Source of the DNA: an uncultured Verrucomicrobiota bacterium
GTDB taxonomy: Bacteria; Verrucomicrobiota; Verrucomicrobiia; Limisphaerales; UBA9464
Direction of reading: 5' to 3'
Length of the DNA stretch: 64,000 nt
NCBI GenBank assembly: GCA_903907925.1
Contig: CAIVQB010000073.1
Location: 2,780-66,779 of the forward strand
The position numbers were made by a program, and so were the translations under genes. The notes under the pieces are model-generated. The model was not told the origin of the DNA. It saw nothing but the letters and a program-made list of their open reading frames with translations, and ran no database searches. Below are positions 3,876-19,422 of the stretch, one piece after another (the stretch's first letter is position 1; every line of letters starts with the position of its first letter).

Positions 3876-4205
3876 TCATTGGCCACCCTCCAGCATCGAC
3901 ACCAGCCGGGCGCGGGCGCGGGCGAGAGCGGGGTGACGGGTCGCAGCCAAGCCGGCCAGAACGCGTCGGAGTAGAGCCGGCGATCCACCGTCAAACTCAC
4001 CATCGAGAACCTGTCGAGCGGTCGAAACCAAGGCCGGGCGGTGTTGTTCGTCGAGGATCTCCAGCACCTCGGCTTTCTGTCGCCGGAGCTGGTCCAGTAG
4101 TTCCCGTGAAAGTTGGTCGTAGCCGGTGATGCCGAGGCCGTTGGGGTGGCGTCTCAAGATCGCACCTCGGATCTGACATTCGTGAACGAGTTTGTCGGCG
4201 GTCAT
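3876..4205 (-). CDS. Hypothetical island protein, translationally coupled to the primase-like gene
   Basis: An ATGA overlap links it to the upstream gene at 4202-4205. The segment RGAILRRHPNGLGITGYDQLSRELLDQLRRQKAEVLEIL resembles TubC_N-type docking motifs; this is a weak assignment made by eye. Confidence 0.5.
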   Translation of the reverse strand: MTADKLVHECQIRGAILRRHPNGLGITGYDQLSRELLDQLRRQKAEVLEILDEQHRPALVSTARQVLDGEFDGGSPALLRRVLAGLAATRHPALARARARLVSMLEGGQ

Positions 4206-5626
4206 AAAATAATTTCGGCGGGACTGAGCGGCACCGCGCTCGGGGAATCCTCAACGACACCAACAACCCATTCGTTCGGAACATTCAAACGGTATTCGGC
4301 GGCCCGGGTTGGCGTTTTAGATGCTTTTGTAATGCGGTCCAGAGTCGGCCTGAATCCCTTTAGAACCCGATGAACCTTCGCAGGGTGGTCGAGCTCGACG
4401 AACCCTTCATCCTTCGCGGCGGTAACAATGAGATCGAGGGGCGCGATGATGATTCCGCCGGTAAGCTGGGCTTGGATGGAAAGCATGGCCAAAAGTCGGA
4501 GGCGCTTCGGCTCTGGATCTTCGATTACATGGTGCCACCACGACGGCGGCGGTTCGGTTCGGCTCCGTTCCCACGCAATCCGCCACGGCACACTGGTGAT
4601 GCCGAGTTTAGCGTCGAGGAACTTCTGGGTAAACTCGTCCCGATAGTCTGAGTCGGAGTGCCGCCGGAATTCGTTCGGTGTCACTTCCAGCCAAAGATTG
4701 ATAACCGTCCGTTGGTCATTCTTGGACAGTTGGAATCGGTCTAGTCCGAGTTCACGCTCCAAATCGCGACACAACCGACCTAGTCGAAAAAGGCCGGCAT
4801 CGGTTTGACTGATGGCAACGGGGGCGAGTTCCTTGATCCGATCACGCAGTTTCGGGTCATTGGGATTTAGCTGGCCTTCACCTGCTATCGGAGAACCGGG
4901 AGAGGGGGTGGATGAGAGAGGAAGATGACTGCCATTCCGCAAGTCTGAACGTCCGCTAGTCTGTAAGTCTGTCTCACACCTCGCCGGCTTCCCGAAATCC
5001 GTTACCGTAACGGTGCGTAGCGGTGTGTAGCGCCCGGTGGGAGCTTTCACGATGATGCCTGGGTCGAACGACACAAAACACCGTCGGCAAACGTCCTTCC
5101 CGGATGGGTCGACCGTGAGCTTCGGGAACTTCTCGGCAACCTCTCGAACGACGGCGTCGAAACATCCCCGGTGACTGGTTTCTTCGGTAGCATCAACCGC
5201 GACAACCCATTTGATCCCGCAACCCGACGGTGAAATGAACACAAGAACGGTGGCCGGGTGCCGCCCGAGCTCGTCCTTGGCCCTCTCGATCTGGTCTAGC
5301 GCTAAACCATCGAAATCGACCACCAGCAGGCCCGAGTGCTGGACCAGACCTGCTTTGCCGGCCGCGCGGAATTCTCCGGAGAACGTCACCGCTGGGAGGG
5401 CATCTTTAACTTCTTTGTACGCACCTTTGTCGCCTTTCTTATAGGCATCTCGACCGGCCTCGATCTTTTCCCGATAATCGTTGCCGCGGATTAGATCAAC
5501 AACCTGTTGAACCGTGATCGGTTTGACGACCTTTCCAGTAATCCGTTTTTGAAATGTGACCTGTGTGTCGAGAACGGTCCGGGCTTTCGGAGGGCGTTCG
5601 ACTGGCGCGATAAGAACCATGCTCAT
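4202..5626 (-). CDS. Primase-like protein with a BT4734/VirE-type N-terminal domain (mobile-element replication or mobilisation)
   Basis: LPAVTFSGEFRAAGKAGLVQHSGLLVVDFDGL...VLVFISPSGCGIKWVVAV matches the BT4734-like/VirE_N pattern. No Walker A motif is visible in the C-terminal half. Confidence 0.65.
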   Translation of the reverse strand: MSMVLIAPVERPPKARTVLDTQVTFQKRITGKVVKPITVQQVVDLIRGNDYREKIEAGRDAYKKGDKGAYKEVKDALPAVTFSGEFRAAGKAGLVQHSGLLVVDFDGLALDQIERAKDELGRHPATVLVFISPSGCGIKWVVAVDATEETSHRGCFDAVVREVAEKFPKLTVDPSGKDVCRRCFVSFDPGIIVKAPTGRYTPLRTVTVTDFGKPARCETDLQTSGRSDLRNGSHLPLSSTPSPGSPIAGEGQLNPNDPKLRDRIKELAPVAISQTDAGLFRLGRLCRDLERELGLDRFQLSKNDQRTVINLWLEVTPNEFRRHSDSDYRDEFTQKFLDAKLGITSVPWRIAWERSRTEPPPSWWHHVIEDPEPKRLRLLAMLSIQAQLTGGIIIAPLDLIVTAAKDEGFVELDHPAKVHRVLKGFRPTLDRITKASKTPTRAAEYRLNVPNEWVVGVVEDSPSAVPLSPAEIIL

Positions 5627-7271: not shown

Positions 7272-7347
7272 TGGTGGCTGCGGCCGGAATCGAACCGGCG
7301 ACACGCGGATTTTCAATCCGCTGCTCTACCAACTGAGCTACACAGCC
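7272..7347 (-). tRNA. tRNA-Phe (anticodon GAA), CCA encoded
   Basis: The reverse complement is GGCTGTGTAGCTCAGTTGGTAGAGCAGCGGATTGAAAATCCGCGTGTCGCCGGTTCGATTCCGGCCGCAGCCACCA. It folds as a cloverleaf with a 7-bp acceptor stem, a TTGAAAA anticodon loop and a GGTTCGATTCC T-arm. Confidence 0.95.
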
Positions 7348-12626: not shown

Positions 12627-14840
12627 TCAGATCGACGTCACGCCGGTCCGTTCCCAAACCGGTCGGTGCGGATCGACGTCGCGTCCAACCTCGAACACCG
12701 CCAGCACGCGTTCCGCGCAGGCGGGATCGTTCAGACACACCGTTCCTGAGACAATCTTCGTCACCGGATCACCCGCGAGTTGTAGATCCTCGCCACAGCG
12801 CTCTGCTGCCAGAGCGGGAAACGAATCGAATCCAGCCCGCTGAACCGCCGTTTTGGAGAGCAACCGAAACACCCCTCGCACGCCAGGCGCCACGCGGTTC
12901 ATCAATTCCAGGGTCAACCGTCCCATGGTGTAGCGGGGATTGATCTCCACCACCGGTTTCAACCTTACCCGGCCGTCGTGATCGCGATACACCAGCGCAT
13001 CGATGCCAACCGGTCCCTCGAATTCCAATCGTCGCAGCTCGGGTTCCAACCTTCGAATCAAACGACGGTACAACGCCGTCAACGCCACTCCGGGAAGGCC
13101 GACACAAACACTCTTCCCGCCCATTCCATGTTCCACTCCGTCGCCCGTGTTCCACAACGTCAGGATGTTGGTGGGCACCCGGCGGTCCCAATCGGCATCG
13201 GCCCAATTGGCCTGGAACTGTCCGCGCAGATCGTTCACCAGGCCGGTGAAGCCCACGAGCCGCAGTCCGCGCACTCCGGATTCCATTTCCAATTGGACGG
13301 AAAAGTCACCGATGCGATCGAGCCACGGTTCAACGAGCAACGTACCGCCCGATTCGAAGGCCGATTCCATCCACCGGCGTTGGGCCGGGAGAATCTCGAG
13401 CTCCCACAGTCGAATCTGGCCGGTTCCAGCGAATCCAAACTCCTCCTTCACCACGACCCGATGATGTCCGCTGCCTCGGACGGCGGCGATCGCCTCCAGC
13501 GCGTCCGCCAGGGATCGCACCGACACGCCGACTTCATCCGGTGAACTTAACGGCGCCGTGGGATTTCGAGGATCGATCAAGGCCGACTCCGCTTCCAAAA
13601 ACCCGCGCAGGAACGAGGCGCTCCAGACCTTCGAATAAAGGCCGGCGATTCCCGGATTGAACCGCTGATCCATGCGGCGGTCTTCACCGGTGACCTGGGC
13701 AGCAAGCGGCTCCAGGCATTCCACGCTATCTGGACCCCACGCCCAGGGGCGGAGTTTCCCAAGCTTGCGGTCCGTCAACTCGCTTCCAACCGGAATTCGT
13801 CCGCCCTCCATCACGACGAATTCGGGAATCGGGAAACCGGCCTTTTGCAGCGTCAATTGGTGAATTTCAGACGGCGATGACGGCACCAGGACGACATCAT
13901 CGCGGCGGCAAAGAAACTGCGTGAGACCCGCCAGGTCATTGGCGAATGTCTGCTGATCGCGGGAGGATTGGAATCGACGGCCACGGGCCGCGGCGGCAAT
14001 GGAGGCCTCGCAAAACGGGTTGAACAGGAAGATTCCCGGGGTCCGGCCGCGGGATCGGGCGAACACTTCCAGCGCGCGAATGAACTCCGGATCGAGTCCG
14101 GCGGCGCGGCGTCCTTCCGGATTAAAGACCGTTCCCTTCGCCCGCTGTGGCGACAGGGGAAACTTCAACTGGCGGCAGAAGGCCTCCCAATCGTTCTCGG
14201 CCGGATTCTTCCAACGTCGAAACCACTTCAATCCGTGAGCCACGTGGGCGATTTCATCGCGGTAAATGCCGTCCAACAGGCGCGAGGTTTCGGCGTCGCC
14301 CACCGCTGCGAACGCCGTGGCGTATTCACGGCAGAAATCGAGATTCGCCTGCTCGAAGGTGAGGCTGAGACCGGCCACGAAATCGATCGGGTTGCTCATC
14401 GGTGCCACGGATCGCCAGAAATAGCCGCTGACCGGCAGATCGCCGAACTCGACCCCGCCGGCCCGCATGCGTTCCACATACAGGCGGGTGTGGGCCTGTT
14501 CATCCCGGAGCGTCTTGAAAACGCCCTGCCGGAACGCCGGCGGCGCGTCCGGAAACCGCAACAACACGAGCGCCATCAACTCGGTCGCGAGCAGTTCGTG
14601 ATTGGCGAAGAAGTGGAGGAGTCGCGCCCGTTCCCCGGTCTTCTCCAACCCGCGGACCCCCGGGAAACCGGAACTCCCCTCCCCGGCACCCTTGAACTTC
14701 AGCGTCGCCGGCCGACCCGGCTCGACAGGCGCCCCACGGGCGGAACCCGGCCGTTCATCGGTCACTTCATCAGGACACCCCAGCTTGTCCGCCAGGGTGG
14801 TTCCAAAGAGCACCTGCTCCGCCAGTTCGCGCAGTTCCAT
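12627..14840 (-). CDS. Fusion protein: N-terminal DUF455 ferritin-like di-iron domain plus C-terminal ATP-grasp-like domain
   Basis: Di-iron ligand pattern: NHELLATELMA, RDEQAHTRLY, FEQANLDF, RDEIAHVAHG. The C-terminal half has VVVKEEFGFAGTGQIRL and GPVGIDALVYRDHDGRVRLKPVVEINPRYTMG, which are ATP-grasp-like. The start is taken at MELRELAEQ (14840); the ORF is open up to 15002. Confidence 0.7.
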   Translation of the reverse strand: MELRELAEQVLFGTTLADKLGCPDEVTDERPGSARGAPVEPGRPATLKFKGAGEGSSGFPGVRGLEKTGERARLLHFFANHELLATELMALVLLRFPDAPPAFRQGVFKTLRDEQAHTRLYVERMRAGGVEFGDLPVSGYFWRSVAPMSNPIDFVAGLSLTFEQANLDFCREYATAFAAVGDAETSRLLDGIYRDEIAHVAHGLKWFRRWKNPAENDWEAFCRQLKFPLSPQRAKGTVFNPEGRRAAGLDPEFIRALEVFARSRGRTPGIFLFNPFCEASIAAAARGRRFQSSRDQQTFANDLAGLTQFLCRRDDVVLVPSSPSEIHQLTLQKAGFPIPEFVVMEGGRIPVGSELTDRKLGKLRPWAWGPDSVECLEPLAAQVTGEDRRMDQRFNPGIAGLYSKVWSASFLRGFLEAESALIDPRNPTAPLSSPDEVGVSVRSLADALEAIAAVRGSGHHRVVVKEEFGFAGTGQIRLWELEILPAQRRWMESAFESGGTLLVEPWLDRIGDFSVQLEMESGVRGLRLVGFTGLVNDLRGQFQANWADADWDRRVPTNILTLWNTGDGVEHGMGGKSVCVGLPGVALTALYRRLIRRLEPELRRLEFEGPVGIDALVYRDHDGRVRLKPVVEINPRYTMGRLTLELMNRVAPGVRGVFRLLSKTAVQRAGFDSFPALAAERCGEDLQLAGDPVTKIVSGTVCLNDPACAERVLAVFEVGRDVDPHRPVWERTGVTSI

Positions 14841-15100
14841 CGATCTCGGAGATGCGTAACAGGCAGGACCCGCTGATGCAGGCGTTTTTGAGGGCTGGAA
14901 CCCGGCGACAGCAGAAGGTTCCTGTCCGATCACCCGCCGGATTCTATCGCTTCCGGGCAAACTCAACCTGCGTGATGGGGGCCCGGTAGAACCCACCGGC
15001 AATCCGTTCCCTCTCCACCCGTGTTCGCCACATCCTTCTCTTTGGAACGTTCATGCTCCAAAGCAAACCACACTTCACCTCCAACTGGCACCGGGCCTCA

Positions 15101-15241
15101 CCGAGCGCTAACCCACATCAGGCAGTATGCGTGGATCCCCGACCCGGCCTTCGCGCAGGTCTCGGCAAGCGAGGTGAGAAAGGACTCCCGACCGTCGTCA
15201 TCGCGGAAAATCGCCTCCCTCCGATCCCCTCAATTCATCAC
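15101..15241 (-). pseudogene. Relic of a Y1 (IS200/IS605-like, RayT-type) transposase gene
   Basis: The minus-strand frame reads VNVMN*GDRREAIFRDDDGRESFLTSLAETCAKAGSGIHAYCLMWVSAR*. This matches the N-terminal YHVMNRGDRRE..IF.DD.DR..FL..L.E.C...G...HAYCLM pattern. It has an in-frame TGA (15230-15232), and the HUH (NHxHL) part is lost. Confidence 0.5.
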
Positions 15242-15254
15242 GTTGACACTTTTT

Positions 15255-15279
15255 GTGTCATTATGTGGGACTGACCCCT
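15255..15279. repeat. Left 25-bp inverted repeat of the AT-rich cassette
   Basis: GTGTCATTATGTGGGACTGACCCCT is the reverse complement of 16131-16155 at 22 of 25 positions, including a 16-nt perfect core. Confidence 0.75.
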
Positions 15280-15290
15280 ATTCCCGGCCT

Positions 15291-15917
15291 TCATCGACCC
15301 GAAAACTCGCTTCCATCTATAAGGCGTTTTCCGTTCGTCCACGAAACCACCAACTTCTCGACCTCGCTATACAGTTCCTGAGCTTTGCAAACCTCACGAT
15401 CCTCTTCTATATAAGGGCGCAAGCATTTAAAAGTCCACGGAAGCGTAAACCCCAGCGACTGCTCCAAGACATCTTCATCGACGTAATCACACTGAATCGC
15501 AATGGAGGCATCCTCGTATATTCCCAACGTCACCGTGACAGCATTGAGTAAATCAGCATCCTCCACGATCTTTTTATACAGATCAGATTTGGATATTTGG
15601 TCATGATTCTTTAGTTGCTGTTCAATAAATCGCCTCACCTGAACAAATTCAGGCCGGTTCAACAGAGTCAGTATTTCAAAACTTTTATCTTTCCTATCAC
15701 GTTGCAGTTTTAGGCGAAGTGCTGCACCAACATAATACGCGCTATAAATTGCGGTCGCTCCTGCGATTACGGCTGTAGAAAACTTTAAATGCTCCCTGCC
15801 ACCCGGCCATAAATAGTATATCGCAAGTATCAAACCAGAGGCGAGCGAGAGCACGATCCACAACGGCACAGACACCCTAAAGTTTAGTAGCTGACCTATA
15901 CGAGTCTTGCCTTTCAT
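15291..15917 (-). CDS. Orphan membrane-anchored protein (two N-terminal TM helices plus a helical cytoplasmic domain) on AT-rich DNA
   Basis: The 208-aa ORF has TM segments VSVPLWIVLSLASGLILAIYYLW and FSTAVIAGATAIYSAYYVGAAL. Its codon usage is clearly AT-richer than neighbouring genes. The architecture is reminiscent of DUF4760-type proteins, but this is unverified. Confidence 0.7.
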   Translation of the reverse strand: MKGKTRIGQLLNFRVSVPLWIVLSLASGLILAIYYLWPGGREHLKFSTAVIAGATAIYSAYYVGAALRLKLQRDRKDKSFEILTLLNRPEFVQVRRFIEQQLKNHDQISKSDLYKKIVEDADLLNAVTVTLGIYEDASIAIQCDYVDEDVLEQSLGFTLPWTFKCLRPYIEEDREVCKAQELYSEVEKLVVSWTNGKRLIDGSEFSGR

Positions 15918-16130
15918 ATGAACATCCTCATGCTTCAGTCGGTTAAAAGCGATCGCCTAGTCTCGTGAATTTCGTTTAGGTCTGAGTCTTCTTTGCCCCG
16001 CTCACTCGACTCTAGGCCAACCTGAATGAGCTGGTACCGATAGAGCGCCGGCGTTGGCAAGATGAAACTGAAGAAAAAGAAGGGGCGGTGGCACGGAGGG
16101 CACGGAGAGACAGTGGGGTCGTATCAGTGA

Positions 16131-16155
16131 AGGGGTCAGTCCCACACTTTGACAC
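16131..16155. repeat. Right 25-bp inverted repeat of the AT-rich cassette
   Basis: AGGGGTCAGTCCCACACTTTGACAC is the partner of 15255-15279. Confidence 0.75.
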
Positions 16156-16245
16156 TTGGTTCGACCTGCCGCTTGGACGAGAGCAGGTTTGGCAGGACTT
16201 TCTCCATCGTCGTGCCTCGCCCTTCAGCCTTTTCCTCGACAACAG

Positions 16246-16267
16246 GACCCTTCCTCATTTTCAGACG
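16246..16267. repeat. Half-copy of the palindromic repeat found at 48986-49019
   Basis: GGACCCTTCCTCATTTTCAGAC is identical over 22 nt to the reverse complement of 48998-49019. Confidence 0.7.
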
Positions 16268-16344
16268 CGTTCTTGGAGCCGATTCCTTCATTTTCCTCAA
16301 TTTCTCCCTCGTCGCCGGCCGGGAGCTCCGCTATCTGAAACCGC

Positions 16345-19300
16345 GTGCCCCCCCGACTGAGCCAGCGCCCACTGCTGTTTCTTGCCGTTGCGGTGTCACT
16401 TTTGGGCCGTGCGGCGGATTTTCCGGAGCCGTTCAACTCCGAAAAACCCGGGCTGGAACCGATGCCCGCAGCTCAAGCCGCCGCCTCGTTCGCGCTCCCC
16501 GAAGGCTTCCACATCAGCGTCTTTGCCGCGGAACCCGACGTCCGCCAGCCGATCGCGATGACCACCGATGCCCGCGGCCGGCTCTGGGTCGCGGAGAATT
16601 ACACCTACGCGGAATCGAAGGTGAATTTCGCCACCCAGCTCAATGACCGGGTGATCATCCTCGAAGACACCAACCACGACGGGAAATTCGATCGACGGAC
16701 GGTGTTCTGGGATCAGGCGAAAATCCTGACCAGCATCGAGGTCGGTCGCGGCGGGGTGTTTGCATTGTGTCCGCCTCGACTCCTGTTTCTACCCGATCGC
16801 TCCGGCAAGGATCGGCCAGACAGTGAGCCGGAAGTGTTGCTCGATGGATTCTCCACGACAACCGGCAATCGCCATACTTTCGCCAACGGACTCAAGTGGG
16901 GACCGGACGGCTGGTTGTGGGGCCGGATCGGAATCTCCAGCGGCGCCCGCATCGGCCTGCCCGGAAGTGACCCCGCCAGCCGCACGGAAATGCGGGGCGG
17001 CATCTGGCGCTATCACCCGGAGCGAAAGATTTTCGAAGCCGTCTGCCACGGAACCACCAATCCCTGGGGACTCGACTGGAACGAGGTCGGCGAACCGTTT
17101 TTCATCAACACCGTCATTGGCCATCTGTGGCACGCCATTCCCGGGGCCCATTTCCGCCGGATGCACGGCGACGACGTCAATCCCCGGGCCTATTCGCTGA
17201 TCGATCAACATGCCGATCATTTTCATTTCGATACCGGCGCCGGTTGGACGAAATCGAGGGCCGCATTCGACGGCAGCACCTTTGCCTCGGGCAGTGACGC
17301 GCTCGGAGGAGGTCACGCCCACGCCGGGTTGATGATTTATCAGGGCGACAACTGGCCCGCGAGCTACCGCGGGGATGTGTTCACGCTCAATCTCCATGGA
17401 CGCCGGATCAACCGCGATCATCTGGAACGCGCGGGGACCGGTTACGTCGGACGACATCGTGCCGACCTGATGCAGGTGGGTGATCCGTGGTTCCGCGGAT
17501 TGGACCTGATTCAGGGACCTGAAGGCGGTGTTTTCATTTCGGATTGGTCCGACACCGGAGAATGCCACGACAGCGACGGCGTTCACCGAACTTCCGGCCG
17601 CATTTACAAAGTCACCTACGGCGTAGAAACCAACCCGCCGCTTCCGGATCTTGCTGGTCTTTCTGACGCCGCACTCATCGGCCGTGTGACCGATCCGAAC
17701 GAATGGATTTCACGCCAGGCCCGGCAGATCCTTGCCGACCGAGCGGCGGCGGGACGTTGCGAGCGCCTCACGGGAGAACAACTTCGCGCCCGGTTTGAGC
17801 AATCGACGACGGTTCATGATCGGTTGCGTTGGCTGTGGGCGGGGCACGCCGTGAACGCCACCCCGGTGGACTGGTTGGCCCGTCATCTCACGGATCCTGA
17901 CGAACACGTTTCGAGCTGGATGGTGCGCCTCATCGCGGATCAATTGCCGTTAAGCCCGGACGACACCATTCCGCAGGCCACGGTGACCGCCGCGAAAACC
18001 GCGCTGAACCGGTTTGCAGGAGGATCGCATGCACCGCTTACTCGGCTGTATCTCGCTTCAGCATTGCAACGAATGCCCCCCGCCGAACGGACCAAACTGG
18101 CGGACGCCCTGCTCGGACCGGGAACGGAATCCACCGACCATAATTATCCGCTGCTGCTGTGGTACGGCCTGGAGCCCTTGATTGCGGCGTGTCCCGAGAT
18201 GGCGCCCCATTTCTTTGCGACCTGCAGTCACCGATTGGTCCGCCAATACATCGCCCGAAGACTGACCGAGGACCTTCGATCCGCTCCGGACGGCCTAAAC
18301 CAACTATTAGCATCCCTGACCGGCCCGGGTGCCGGGAGCGCGGCCTCACAACAAGATTTGCTGCGCGGTGTGGCTGATGCACTGCGCGGGCTGCGGAAAT
18401 GTCCTCCACCTGTCGGTTGGAACGCCTTTGCCGCATCCGCCGCCAATCGCGCCGACTCCGAGATCAACGAGCGGCTCCGGGATTTGGGCGTGGTTTTTGG
18501 TGATGGGCGCGCCACCGACGATTTGCGACACATCGTCGCCGATCCCGCCGCGGATGCCTCTTCCCGCCGCAATGCCCTGACCGCGCTGGTCGAAGCCCGC
18601 ATTCCCAATCTGAGTCCATTGCTGCGCAGTGTCGTCAGCGACGGAACCCTCCGACCCACGGCCTTGATGGGCCTGCTCCAGACCGATGATCCCGATGGCG
18701 CTGCCCAAGTGGTGTCCAATTATCCGTGGCTCGGGTTGGAGGATCGCCCCGCGATTCTCACCGCGATGGTGTCCCGGCCGGCGACGGCGCGAACACTTCT
18801 GGACGCCCTCGCCGCGGGAACGGTACCGCGGACCGATCTGACCGCATTTCACGCCCGACAGATTGTCTCCTTGGCCGATGCCCGGTTGACCCAGCGATTG
18901 ACCGAGGTCTGGGGCGTGGTGCGGGTGGGGGAGAGCGATCACCGGTCGGCGATTGACCGTTTTCGCGGCCAGATGACCCCAACCGCGGTCGCTGGTGCCA
19001 ACCTGCAGGATGGTCGACAAACGTTTCAACAACTCTGCGCCCCCTGTCACCGGCTTCACGGCGTCGGAGGCGAAATCGGTCCCGATCTGACCGGGTCGGG
19101 ACGGTCCAATCTCGATTATCTGCTGGAGAACATCGTCGATCCCAACGCCGTTGTTCCTGCCGGGTACCGGTTGACGACGGTGATCCTGACCGACGGACGG
19201 GCGCTGGCGGGTGTGGTTCGGGACGAAAATGACAGGACCCTCACCCTCCAGGCTCCGGGTCAGTCCCAAGTGATTGATCGCCGTGAAATTCAGCATCTTG

Positions 19301-19422
19301 AGACCTCGAATCAATCGATGATGCCCGAGGGACTTTTGGAGGGGTTGCCGATCGAAGCCACTCGAAACCTGCTGGCGTATCTCATGCATCCGGGTGAGGT
19401 TCCGCCAACCGCTCCGCGATAA
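16345..19422 (+). CDS. PVC-type heme-binding CxxCH protein (membrane-bound dehydrogenase domain, HEAT-like repeats, C-terminal cytochrome c)
   Basis: It has a signal peptide. The dehydrogenase-domain start is [38 protein letters not shown]. The C-terminus has [24 protein letters not shown] (CxxCH) and NQSMMPEGL. Confidence 0.9.
   Translation: [1025 protein letters not shown]

Follow-up and report, generated by a model that had tools for sequence, protein, structure and literature searches.

Facing ends of two decayed TIRtron remnants around a foreign DUF4760 gene in an uncultured Verrucomicrobiota bacterium

TIRtrons and the inverted repeat pair

TIRtrons are genetic units in which a RayT-like gene is flanked by terminal inverted repeats (TIRs) and not by repetitive extragenic palindromes (REPs), and the proteins that they encode have been named TIRYTs (Di Nocera et al. 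2013, PMC3733652). A common TIR motif, GGGGWSAS, has been reported (PMC3733652; PMC6006769), and copies of the TIRs are known singly, in dimers and in clusters (PMC3733652). TIRtrons have been equated with the subclass 2.1 TnpA_REP-like Y1 proteins, whose C-terminal helix-turn-helix (HTH) extensions are recognised by the models Bac_DnaA_C, HTH_23 or HTH_28 (Quentin et al. 2018, PMC6006769). Mobilisation of TIRs by TIRYT proteins was not tested in either study. The locus described here is a pair of inverted repeats at 15255-16155 of a 64,000-nucleotide stretch of DNA (hereafter the window) from an uncultured bacterium of the Verrucomicrobiota (contig CAIVQB010000073.1). The pair encloses a single gene of the DUF4760 family and has the appearance of a new gene cassette with terminal repeats, but its repeats belong to two relics of a known transposon class. 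The deciding test is the polarity of the repeats, that is, which of their ends faces a transposase gene. The reading put forward here, with a probability of about 0.8, is that a DUF4760 islet acquired by horizontal transfer lies between two tandem, decayed remnants of TIRtrons, and that the inverted repeat is a by-product of their ends facing each other.

The two 25-nt arms, located with a repeat finder at 15255-15279 (GTGTCATTATGTGGGACTGACCCCT) and 16131-16155 (AGGGGTCAGTCCCACACTTTGACAC), are 88% complementary (22/25) at a spacing of 851 nt. They share a perfect 16-nt core, TGTGGGACTGACCCCT, which occurs twice in the window, once per strand. Of 40 first-order Markov shuffles of the window, one gave an inverted repeat matching at 22/25 or better within 2 kb. 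The repeat finder and the core count confirm the arms, core and spacing given in a preliminary description of the window, which was made by reading the sequence.

A TIRtron family in the Verrucomicrobiota

That description had proposed counting copies of the repeat, and their orientation, in related genomes. A scan of one genome per species with the motif GTGTCANNNTGTGGGACTGACCCC, which has 21 specified bases and for which we calculate about 0.3 chance matches, finds it at 28 loci, of which 27 belong to Verrucomicrobiota assemblies and one to an Acidobacteria-binned contig, and the polarity of the copies is constant. With a tolerance of up to 4 mismatches the partner repeats of these loci were recovered as well. 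Conservation among 46 copies extends over a 26-nt block, GTGTCAATNTGTGGGACTGACCCCTT, and falls sharply at both of its edges. In all bounded copies GACCCC(TT) forms the outer end of the repeat and GTGTCA the inner end, and wherever a match to a Y1 gene adjoins a TIR in other genomes it lies on the GTGTCA side. The outer end reads GGGGTCAG; because it fits GGGGWSAS exactly, the Verrucomicrobiota family can be assigned to the TIRtrons.

Four elements are full-length (loci L013, L020, L024 and L027), measure 1002-1012 bp and bear a TIR at both ends, the layout being a reverse-complement repeat, about 29 nt, an open reading frame (ORF) of about 310 aa and a repeat. The 5' TIR lies about 30 nt upstream of the start of the Y1 gene, MARKLRIEYPGAIYHVMNRGDRRE... 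(MARKLRIEYPG...), and the 3' TIR overlaps the stop codon of the same gene, which ends ...MGTGASLSNLLSERRRKGK before the stop. The ORF matches the Pfam family Y1_Tnp (PF01797, E 5.4e-12 for the L013 homologue), and the L013 transposase contains the motifs NHFHLV and GRYK. Among NCBIfam models the L013 protein scores best with REP_Tyr_transpos (E 4.5e-13), at 49 bits and thus below the curated cut-off of 80; the IS200 equivalog model gives E 0.067, with 13 bits against a cut-off of 55. The transposase has a C-terminal extension of about 170 aa.

Other copies are reduced. Internally deleted elements are present at L003, L007, L021 and L026, and bare TIR doublets of 52-160 bp, with inner ends 5-138 nt apart, at L002, L010, L014, L015, L018 and L022, so that the bounded copies descend in size from 1 kb through 400-600 bp to 52-160 bp. 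In every bounded copy of other genomes (4 intact, about 9 shortened) the GTGTCA ends point inward. Single TIRs fold no better than shuffled sequences (z +0.2 to +0.8), and the doublet at L014 forms a near-perfect 33-bp hairpin (-40 kcal/mol, z -11). The doublets at L014:5513-5565, L018:1940-1992 and L022:3995-4047 can be regarded as REPIN-like derivatives of the family. The copy on the Acidobacteria-binned contig (L026, VFZW01000601.1) is internally deleted; either mis-binning or horizontal spread could explain its presence there. The dispersal of copies within and between genomes implies, as far as sequence comparison can tell, that the TIRYT element is mobile or has been so.

With published TIRtrons the family shares a RayT-like Y1/HUH gene between terminal inverted repeats that are not self-complementary, TIRs at a fixed short distance from the gene with one overlapping its 3' end, the dispersal of TIR copies as singles, dimers and groups, and a protein longer than the classical RayT by virtue of a C-terminal extension. 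The DnaA_C/HTH similarity described for the C-terminus of subclass 2.1 is not detectable with Pfam in the Verrucomicrobiota protein, four C-terminal segments giving no match to an HTH model at E < 0.1. The family differs in its full series of internally deleted copies, a picture closer to that of an active insertion sequence with derivatives of the miniature inverted-repeat transposable element (MITE) kind than to that of a domesticated single-copy gene, and the window itself holds two decayed remnants instead of a working element.

The family may also be compared with the REPtron or REPIN-RAYT systems, which were reportedly described by Nunvar in 2010 and by Bertels and Rainey in 2011. Both have a transposase of the same family, as judged from the best NCBIfam match, REP_Tyr_transpos, which remains below its cut-off; in both a short repeat stands in inverted copies on either side of the gene, and the REPIN has a counterpart in the dispersed doublets that form long hairpins, as at L014. 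A REP unit is an imperfect palindrome of 20-40 nt tagged by GTAG or CGTC, whereas the 26-nt unit of the Verrucomicrobiota is not a palindrome, does not fold on itself and has neither tag in its consensus. The insertion sequences of the IS200/IS605 group (IS608 and similar) resemble the family in their Y1 HUH transposase, their small size of about 1 kb and the lack of a visible target-site duplication. IS200/IS605 elements carry subterminal hairpins at their ends, which do not repeat each other in inverted form; in contrast, the ends of the Verrucomicrobiota element are true TIRs, and the IS200 equivalog model, as noted, hardly responds to its protein. Finally, the arrangement resembles a composite transposon in that a foreign gene lies between two copies of one transposable element. 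It differs in that both copies are truncated on their far sides and have lost their outer ends, so that the unit cannot move as a composite now and need never have done so.

The TIRtron/TIRYT class is already published, and the family of the Verrucomicrobiota, in which all stages of decay are represented, is a new addition to it; no mention of the 26-nt TIR family or its Verrucomicrobiota hosts was found in PMC3733652 or PMC6006769. The family is well populated, with intact elements, internally deleted ones and bare hairpin doublets, and the question whether TIRYT proteins mobilise TIRs could be put to it as a natural system.

Two remnants in the window

The window was mapped by blastn against the four intact elements. 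In the left remnant, A, window positions 15278-15255 (minus strand) correspond to element positions 1-24, the 5' TIR, at 92-96% identity, and positions 15241-15113 (minus strand) to element positions 99-227, which are codons 15-57 of the transposase gene; element positions 25-98 are deleted. TIR-A, delimited by the repeat finder, by blastn and by the 26-nt consensus, occupies 15255-15280 on the minus strand, with its GTGTCA end towards the pseudogene on its left. The pseudogene fragment itself, of a RayT-like Y1 (TIRYT) protein, occupies 15113-15244 on the same strand. In tblastn with the intact L013 protein it is 72% identical to residues 15-57 (E 7.7e-14) and contains an in-frame stop, NVMN*GDRREAIFRDDDGRESFLTSLAETCAKAGSGIHAYCLM, which bears out the decayed RayT-like gene reported to the left of the left repeat. 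Pfam gives no match to the 104-aa conceptual translation of this remnant, the fragment being too short and too decayed.

In the right remnant, B, window positions 16196-16132 (minus strand) correspond to element positions 947-1011 (E 3e-6) and cover the last 41 nt or so of the gene together with the 3' TIR. TIR-B lies at 16130-16155 on the minus strand, with its GTGTCA end towards the coding remnant on its right; it is identified by blastn and has a degenerate copy in the related locus L189, discussed below. The coding remnant, 16156-16215 on the minus strand, represents the last 41-60 nt or so of a TIRYT gene as judged from blastn and from an alignment of 3' ends. In this alignment, which adds nine 3' ends of homologous elements in other genomes and the remnant of L189, the invariant columns read ...CTGTC.AA.CTG.T.TCG...GCGGC..., and remnant B encodes LPNLLSSKRQ against a conserved C-terminus of LSNLLS.RR.

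Along the minus strand the order is therefore the 3' tail of element B, TIR-B, the 851-bp segment, TIR-A and the 5' part of element A. Both TIRs of the window turn their GACCCC outer ends towards the segment and their GTGTCA ends outward, to the transposase-gene remnants. Since the outer ends of both TIRs face the segment, it lies outside both elements. The 64 kb contain only these two TIR copies and one detectable Y1 fragment. Present-day mobility of the locus is unlikely: the window yielded no intact transposase, a single TIR is left to each remnant, and the outer TIRs are gone. The preliminary description had also considered a REP-like pair, or bacterial interspersed mosaic element (BIME), belonging to the adjacent Y1 gene. 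This was right in so far as the repeats do terminate RayT-like elements, the left one being the 5' repeat of the decayed gene; however, the TIRs are not REP palindromes, and the right repeat is the 3' end of a second remnant.

To the left of TIR-A the junction at 15230-15260 reads GTTGACAC-TTTTT-GTGTCA and places a 7-nt inverted copy of the inner TIR end (GTGTCAA) at the deletion junction, which may be the trace of a doublet or of a microhomology-mediated deletion. The small hairpin TGACAC-TTTTT-GTGTCA (15244-15260) described earlier does exist, but with z -1.7 and 12 of 200 shuffles folding equally well it is not significant. A stretch at 15230-15251 with a 77% direct-repeat match to the right TIR was considered as a third TIR and rejected, as it lies within the decayed coding sequence and has little in common with the repeat beyond GTGTCAA. 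A role of the TIRs as terminators or promoters was likewise rejected, since consensus scans of 14800-16400 lent it no support and returned only one weak terminator-like site, inside the start region of the DUF7133 gene on the right. Rfam (at gathering score) and tRNA scans gave no match in or near the 851-bp segment.

The enclosed segment and its DUF4760 gene

The DNA between the repeats contains one credible gene, as had been described, on the minus strand at 15291-15917 and encoding 208 aa. Windowed GC is 0.42 at 15400-15850 against about 0.62 on both sides. The gene has a GC content of 0.455 and a GC3 of 0.474, compared with 0.63 and 0.70-0.72 in the two neighbouring genes, and it is the lowest-GC 627-bp stretch of the entire window (mean 0.603, sd 0.032). 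The AT-richness first judged by eye is thereby borne out for the gene, but not evenly for the segment, whose low GC comes mostly from the gene; the 213-bp part upstream of it has a GC content of 0.53. This non-coding upstream region (15918-16129) has no counterpart in the relative whose DUF7133 protein is 86% identical, and a consensus scan reveals no sigma-70-like promoter in it. The foreign origin of the gene is indicated by its GC content, by the low identity and scattered settings of its homologues and by the empty orthologous site in relatives. No recombinase gene was found inside the repeats, in agreement with the preliminary description, or among the Pfam-scanned or annotated genes several kb to either side.

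The protein matches Pfam DUF4760 (PF15956) with E 1.4e-15 and 58.1 bits (gathering cut-off 25) over profile positions 2-141 of 141. It is composed of two N-terminal membrane helices and an all-helical domain, and the AlphaFold model is all-alpha with a mean pLDDT of 90.5. Its nearest homologues are about 50% and at most 53% identical, are solitary and lie in unrelated neighbourhoods; a GC content below that of the neighbouring DNA is seen for the gene in three other hosts too. No TIRs or Y1 genes were found near the homologues elsewhere, and no further copy of the 851-bp segment was found. Searches for a function were largely negative: PADLOC gave no match to the protein even at E 1, NCBIfam returned nothing meaningful, and Foldseek against the PDB gave no significant match (best E 1.4). 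The protein matches one PHROG family of unknown function, and Foldseek finds one unnamed viral protein that resembles the model (E 6e-3, TM 0.54-0.58). A pattern scan of IMG/VR returned no DUF4760 relatives; its 64 matches to the 15-mer core of the TIR are unrelated sequences that have no GTGTCA part. Annotation as a defence-system protein was rejected in view of the absent PADLOC match and the uninformative PHROG. The helical domain is weakly and non-significantly similar to the EP domain of the plant proteins EDS1, PAD4 and SAG101 (TM 0.41-0.43, probability 0.14-0.44, E > 2). The sole paper found to mention the DUF4760 domain lists it inside a genomic island of Serratia (PMC9964261). The DUF4760 gene is a solitary accessory gene with a patchy distribution, present in phages and genomic islands as well, and its product, although still uncharacterised, is probably a horizontally mobile accessory membrane protein.

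The locus in related genomes

Two contigs from other metagenome samples (L029, L030) are 99.95-99.98% identical to the window in DNA sequence, collinear with it and in the same orientation. Orthologues of the DUF7133 protein encoded to the right of the repeats are 86%, 71% and 68% identical. At L042-L044 (DUF455 62%, DUF7133 about 68%) the divergent DUF455 and DUF7133 genes that flank the window's repeats are adjacent, with a gap of 108 bp, and at L190 (DUF7133 71%) they are adjacent with a gap of about 150 bp that contains no TIR. At 62-71% identity the site is therefore empty, having neither the DUF4760 gene nor Y1 remnants. From the gaps of some 110-150 bp in these relatives it follows that about 1.3-1.4 kb were inserted in the lineage of the window. 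The preliminary description had proposed looking for an empty site that joins about 15254 to about 16156. Such a junction was not found, given that the empty sites of the relatives lack the Y1 remnants as well, and that L189 retains TIR-B.

L189 is a close relative (DUF7133 86%). Its homology to the window starts at L189:542, equivalent to window position 16130, which lies at the TIR-B outer end or within 1-2 nt of it. Upstream of DUF7133 it keeps a degenerate TIR (GTTTCAAAGTGTTGGACTGGCCCC) together with remnant B, from which it follows that remnant B predates the split of the two lineages. Beyond the TIR, however, L189 has the 3' end of a PEP-CTERM-type gene (GC 0.60) instead of the DUF4760 upstream region (L189:1-570 compared with window 16060-16160). 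The DNA at the outer end of remnant B has thus changed since the split in at least one of the two lineages.

On the left side, P0034 (DUF455 85%) has a gap of 468 bp upstream of DUF455, compared with 450 bp in the window. P0032 was considered as a partial orthologue and rejected, its gene being unrelated and complete. A metagenome scan for more distant DUF455 loci yielded 80 (at most 59% identity), none of which has a DUF7133 neighbour, a TIR, a Y1 gene or DUF4760.

How the islet came to lie between two element ends

The two remnants lie head-to-tail on the minus strand in what was formerly a short spacer between the divergent DUF455 and DUF7133 genes, and the 851-bp segment is DNA sandwiched between two elements and the interior of neither. 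The remnants may descend from neighbouring or tandem insertions that were later eroded by deletions. How the islet came between the two ends could be accounted for by such insertions and deletions, by recombination between TIR copies, or by cleavage and joining by the transposase; in the latter two cases cargo would have been placed or replaced at a TIR end.

Several points weigh against the reading as a whole. Two independent insertions within 1 kb, yielding the only copies in 64 kb, amount to a moderate coincidence, and their closeness argues for some linkage between the insertion events; on the other hand such proximity is unsurprising because clustering of TIRs, as dimers and in groups, has been published (PMC3733652). 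Both elements have lost their outer halves entirely while the flanking genes are intact, and two or more additional deletions are needed to account for this. On the right, the coding remnant is short, reaching about 41 nt beyond the TIR at 69-75% identity. The comparison with a close relative covers the right junction only, and either the DUF4760 segment or the sequence of L189 could be the older occupant of the site.

The alternative that survives best, though it is unlikely, holds that the DUF4760 segment was brought to the site or exchanged there by the Y1 transposase, either as DNA flanked by one TIRtron's right end and its neighbour's left end, as in a composite transposon, or by joining at a cleaved TIR end. 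The outward-facing TIR pair would then mark a cargo slot made by the transposase and be no accidental sandwich. Homology between the window and L189 ends no more than 1-2 nt from the TIR-B outer end, and the DNA further out differs, which is what such a process would leave behind; tandem remnants only 851 bp apart in a window that has no other copies fit it too. A similar layout is seen at L028, where a Y1 3' end, a TIR, a gene, a TIR and a Y1 5' start follow each other in tandem as in the window. Yet no outer TIRs are left to bound a composite unit, and DUF4760 homologues elsewhere never adjoin TIRs or Y1 genes. The outward-facing pairs at L023 and L028 enclose ordinary host-type genes, a breakpoint at the edge of a repeat is also expected from plain recombination between repeats or from the edge of an old insertion, and L189 is a metagenome contig in which an assembly join is possible. 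The more general idea, that single-gene DNA of foreign origin is captured or swapped precisely at the outer end of a TIR, whether by the Y1 transposase or through recombination of TIR copies, is quite improbable on present data. If it were true, two lineages with 86% identical DUF7133 would carry different DNA from the same nucleotide onward beside the same old remnant. The break in synteny at a TIR end is accordingly a lead and no finding; were it general, these elements would organise strain-variable DNA.

Of the outward-facing pairs around ordinary genes, that at L023:209-1783 encloses a flavin-reductase-like ORF and an ORF of 289 aa, and that at L028:94-1468 a protein with a prepilin-type N-terminus (DUF1559-like), all identified by eye.

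A non-autonomous, MITE-like cassette, in which the 851-bp segment and its two repeats form one unit mobilised in trans, was the first suggestion made for the locus. It would explain why a 22/25 inverted repeat brackets a compositionally foreign single gene and why more distant relatives have an empty site. It is very unlikely in the light of the polarity, which is opposite to that of every bounded copy of the family: the GTGTCA ends point away from the segment, and remnants of transposase genes lie directly beyond both repeats. Moreover, L189 keeps TIR-B and does not have the segment, no second copy of the cassette was found, no target-site duplication is seen at 15254/16156, and the DUF4760 homologues have no such repeats. 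The earlier suggestion of an invertible segment, in which recombination between the repeats would flip the DUF4760 gene and its promoter region, fares no better. Inverted repeats do flank the gene together with its upstream region, but there is no invertase or other recombinase among the scanned or annotated genes several kb to either side, and the gene would carry its own upstream region along, so that a flip gives no obvious on/off effect. A perfect core of 16 nt is short for homologous recombination. The two near-identical contigs L029 and L030 show the same orientation as the window, although they are consensus assemblies in which a minority orientation would not appear; a switch of this kind is highly improbable. 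That the repeat is due to chance or a local duplication and has no wider meaning (by our calculation 64 kb should contain about 0.06 perfect 16-nt inverted cores with a spacing of up to 2 kb) is refuted, with a single shuffle in 40 giving any inverted repeat of at least 22/25 and the same 21 bases recurring at 28 loci of other genomes, always by Y1 genes or as doublets.

Flanking genes and other features of the window

Neither of the two flanking host genes is part of an element. To the left, a DUF455-family protein of 737 aa (Pfam PF04305, E 2.4e-46) is encoded on the minus strand at 12627-14840, a gene that marks the original locus. The spacer between it and remnant A (14841-15112) aligns up to about 14905 with intergenic DNA of the relatives, the block AAAACGCCTGC upstream of the ATG being common to both; no Y1 or TIR match was found in this spacer, including the remaining 200 nt or so beyond 14905. 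To the right of remnant B, 16216-16344 is an upstream region of DUF7133 that is common to relatives, with about 88% identity to L189 and an alignment to L190 from 16299. It leads into the gene of a DUF7133/PVC-type haem-binding protein of 1025 aa on the plus strand at 16345-19422 (Pfam PF23500, E 1.5e-62). The DUF455 domain spans approximately residues 35-254 of the 737 aa (89-308 of the longer, 791-aa ORF that was scanned), and the C-terminal part of about 480 aa, to which Pfam assigns no family, is conserved in thousands of homologues.

The region with the second-lowest GC of the window (0.47-0.49) is at 666-1328 on the plus strand, where an ORF that has no Pfam match ends in a PEP-CTERM-type anchor (VPEP...). 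At the start of the window, 9-512 on the plus strand encodes a C-terminal fragment, cut by the window start, of a transposase of the IS256/Mutator family (PF00872, E 5.9e-41). A protein with a BT4734-like N-terminal domain (PF08800, E 4e-24) is encoded on the minus strand at 4202-5626, about 1.6 kb from the only tRNA gene of the window, a tRNA-Phe at 7272-7347 on the minus strand. The BT4734-like domain accompanies primase-type proteins of integrative elements. Taken with the transposase fragment, the location of this protein near tRNA-Phe suggests that an element is integrated at the window's left end.

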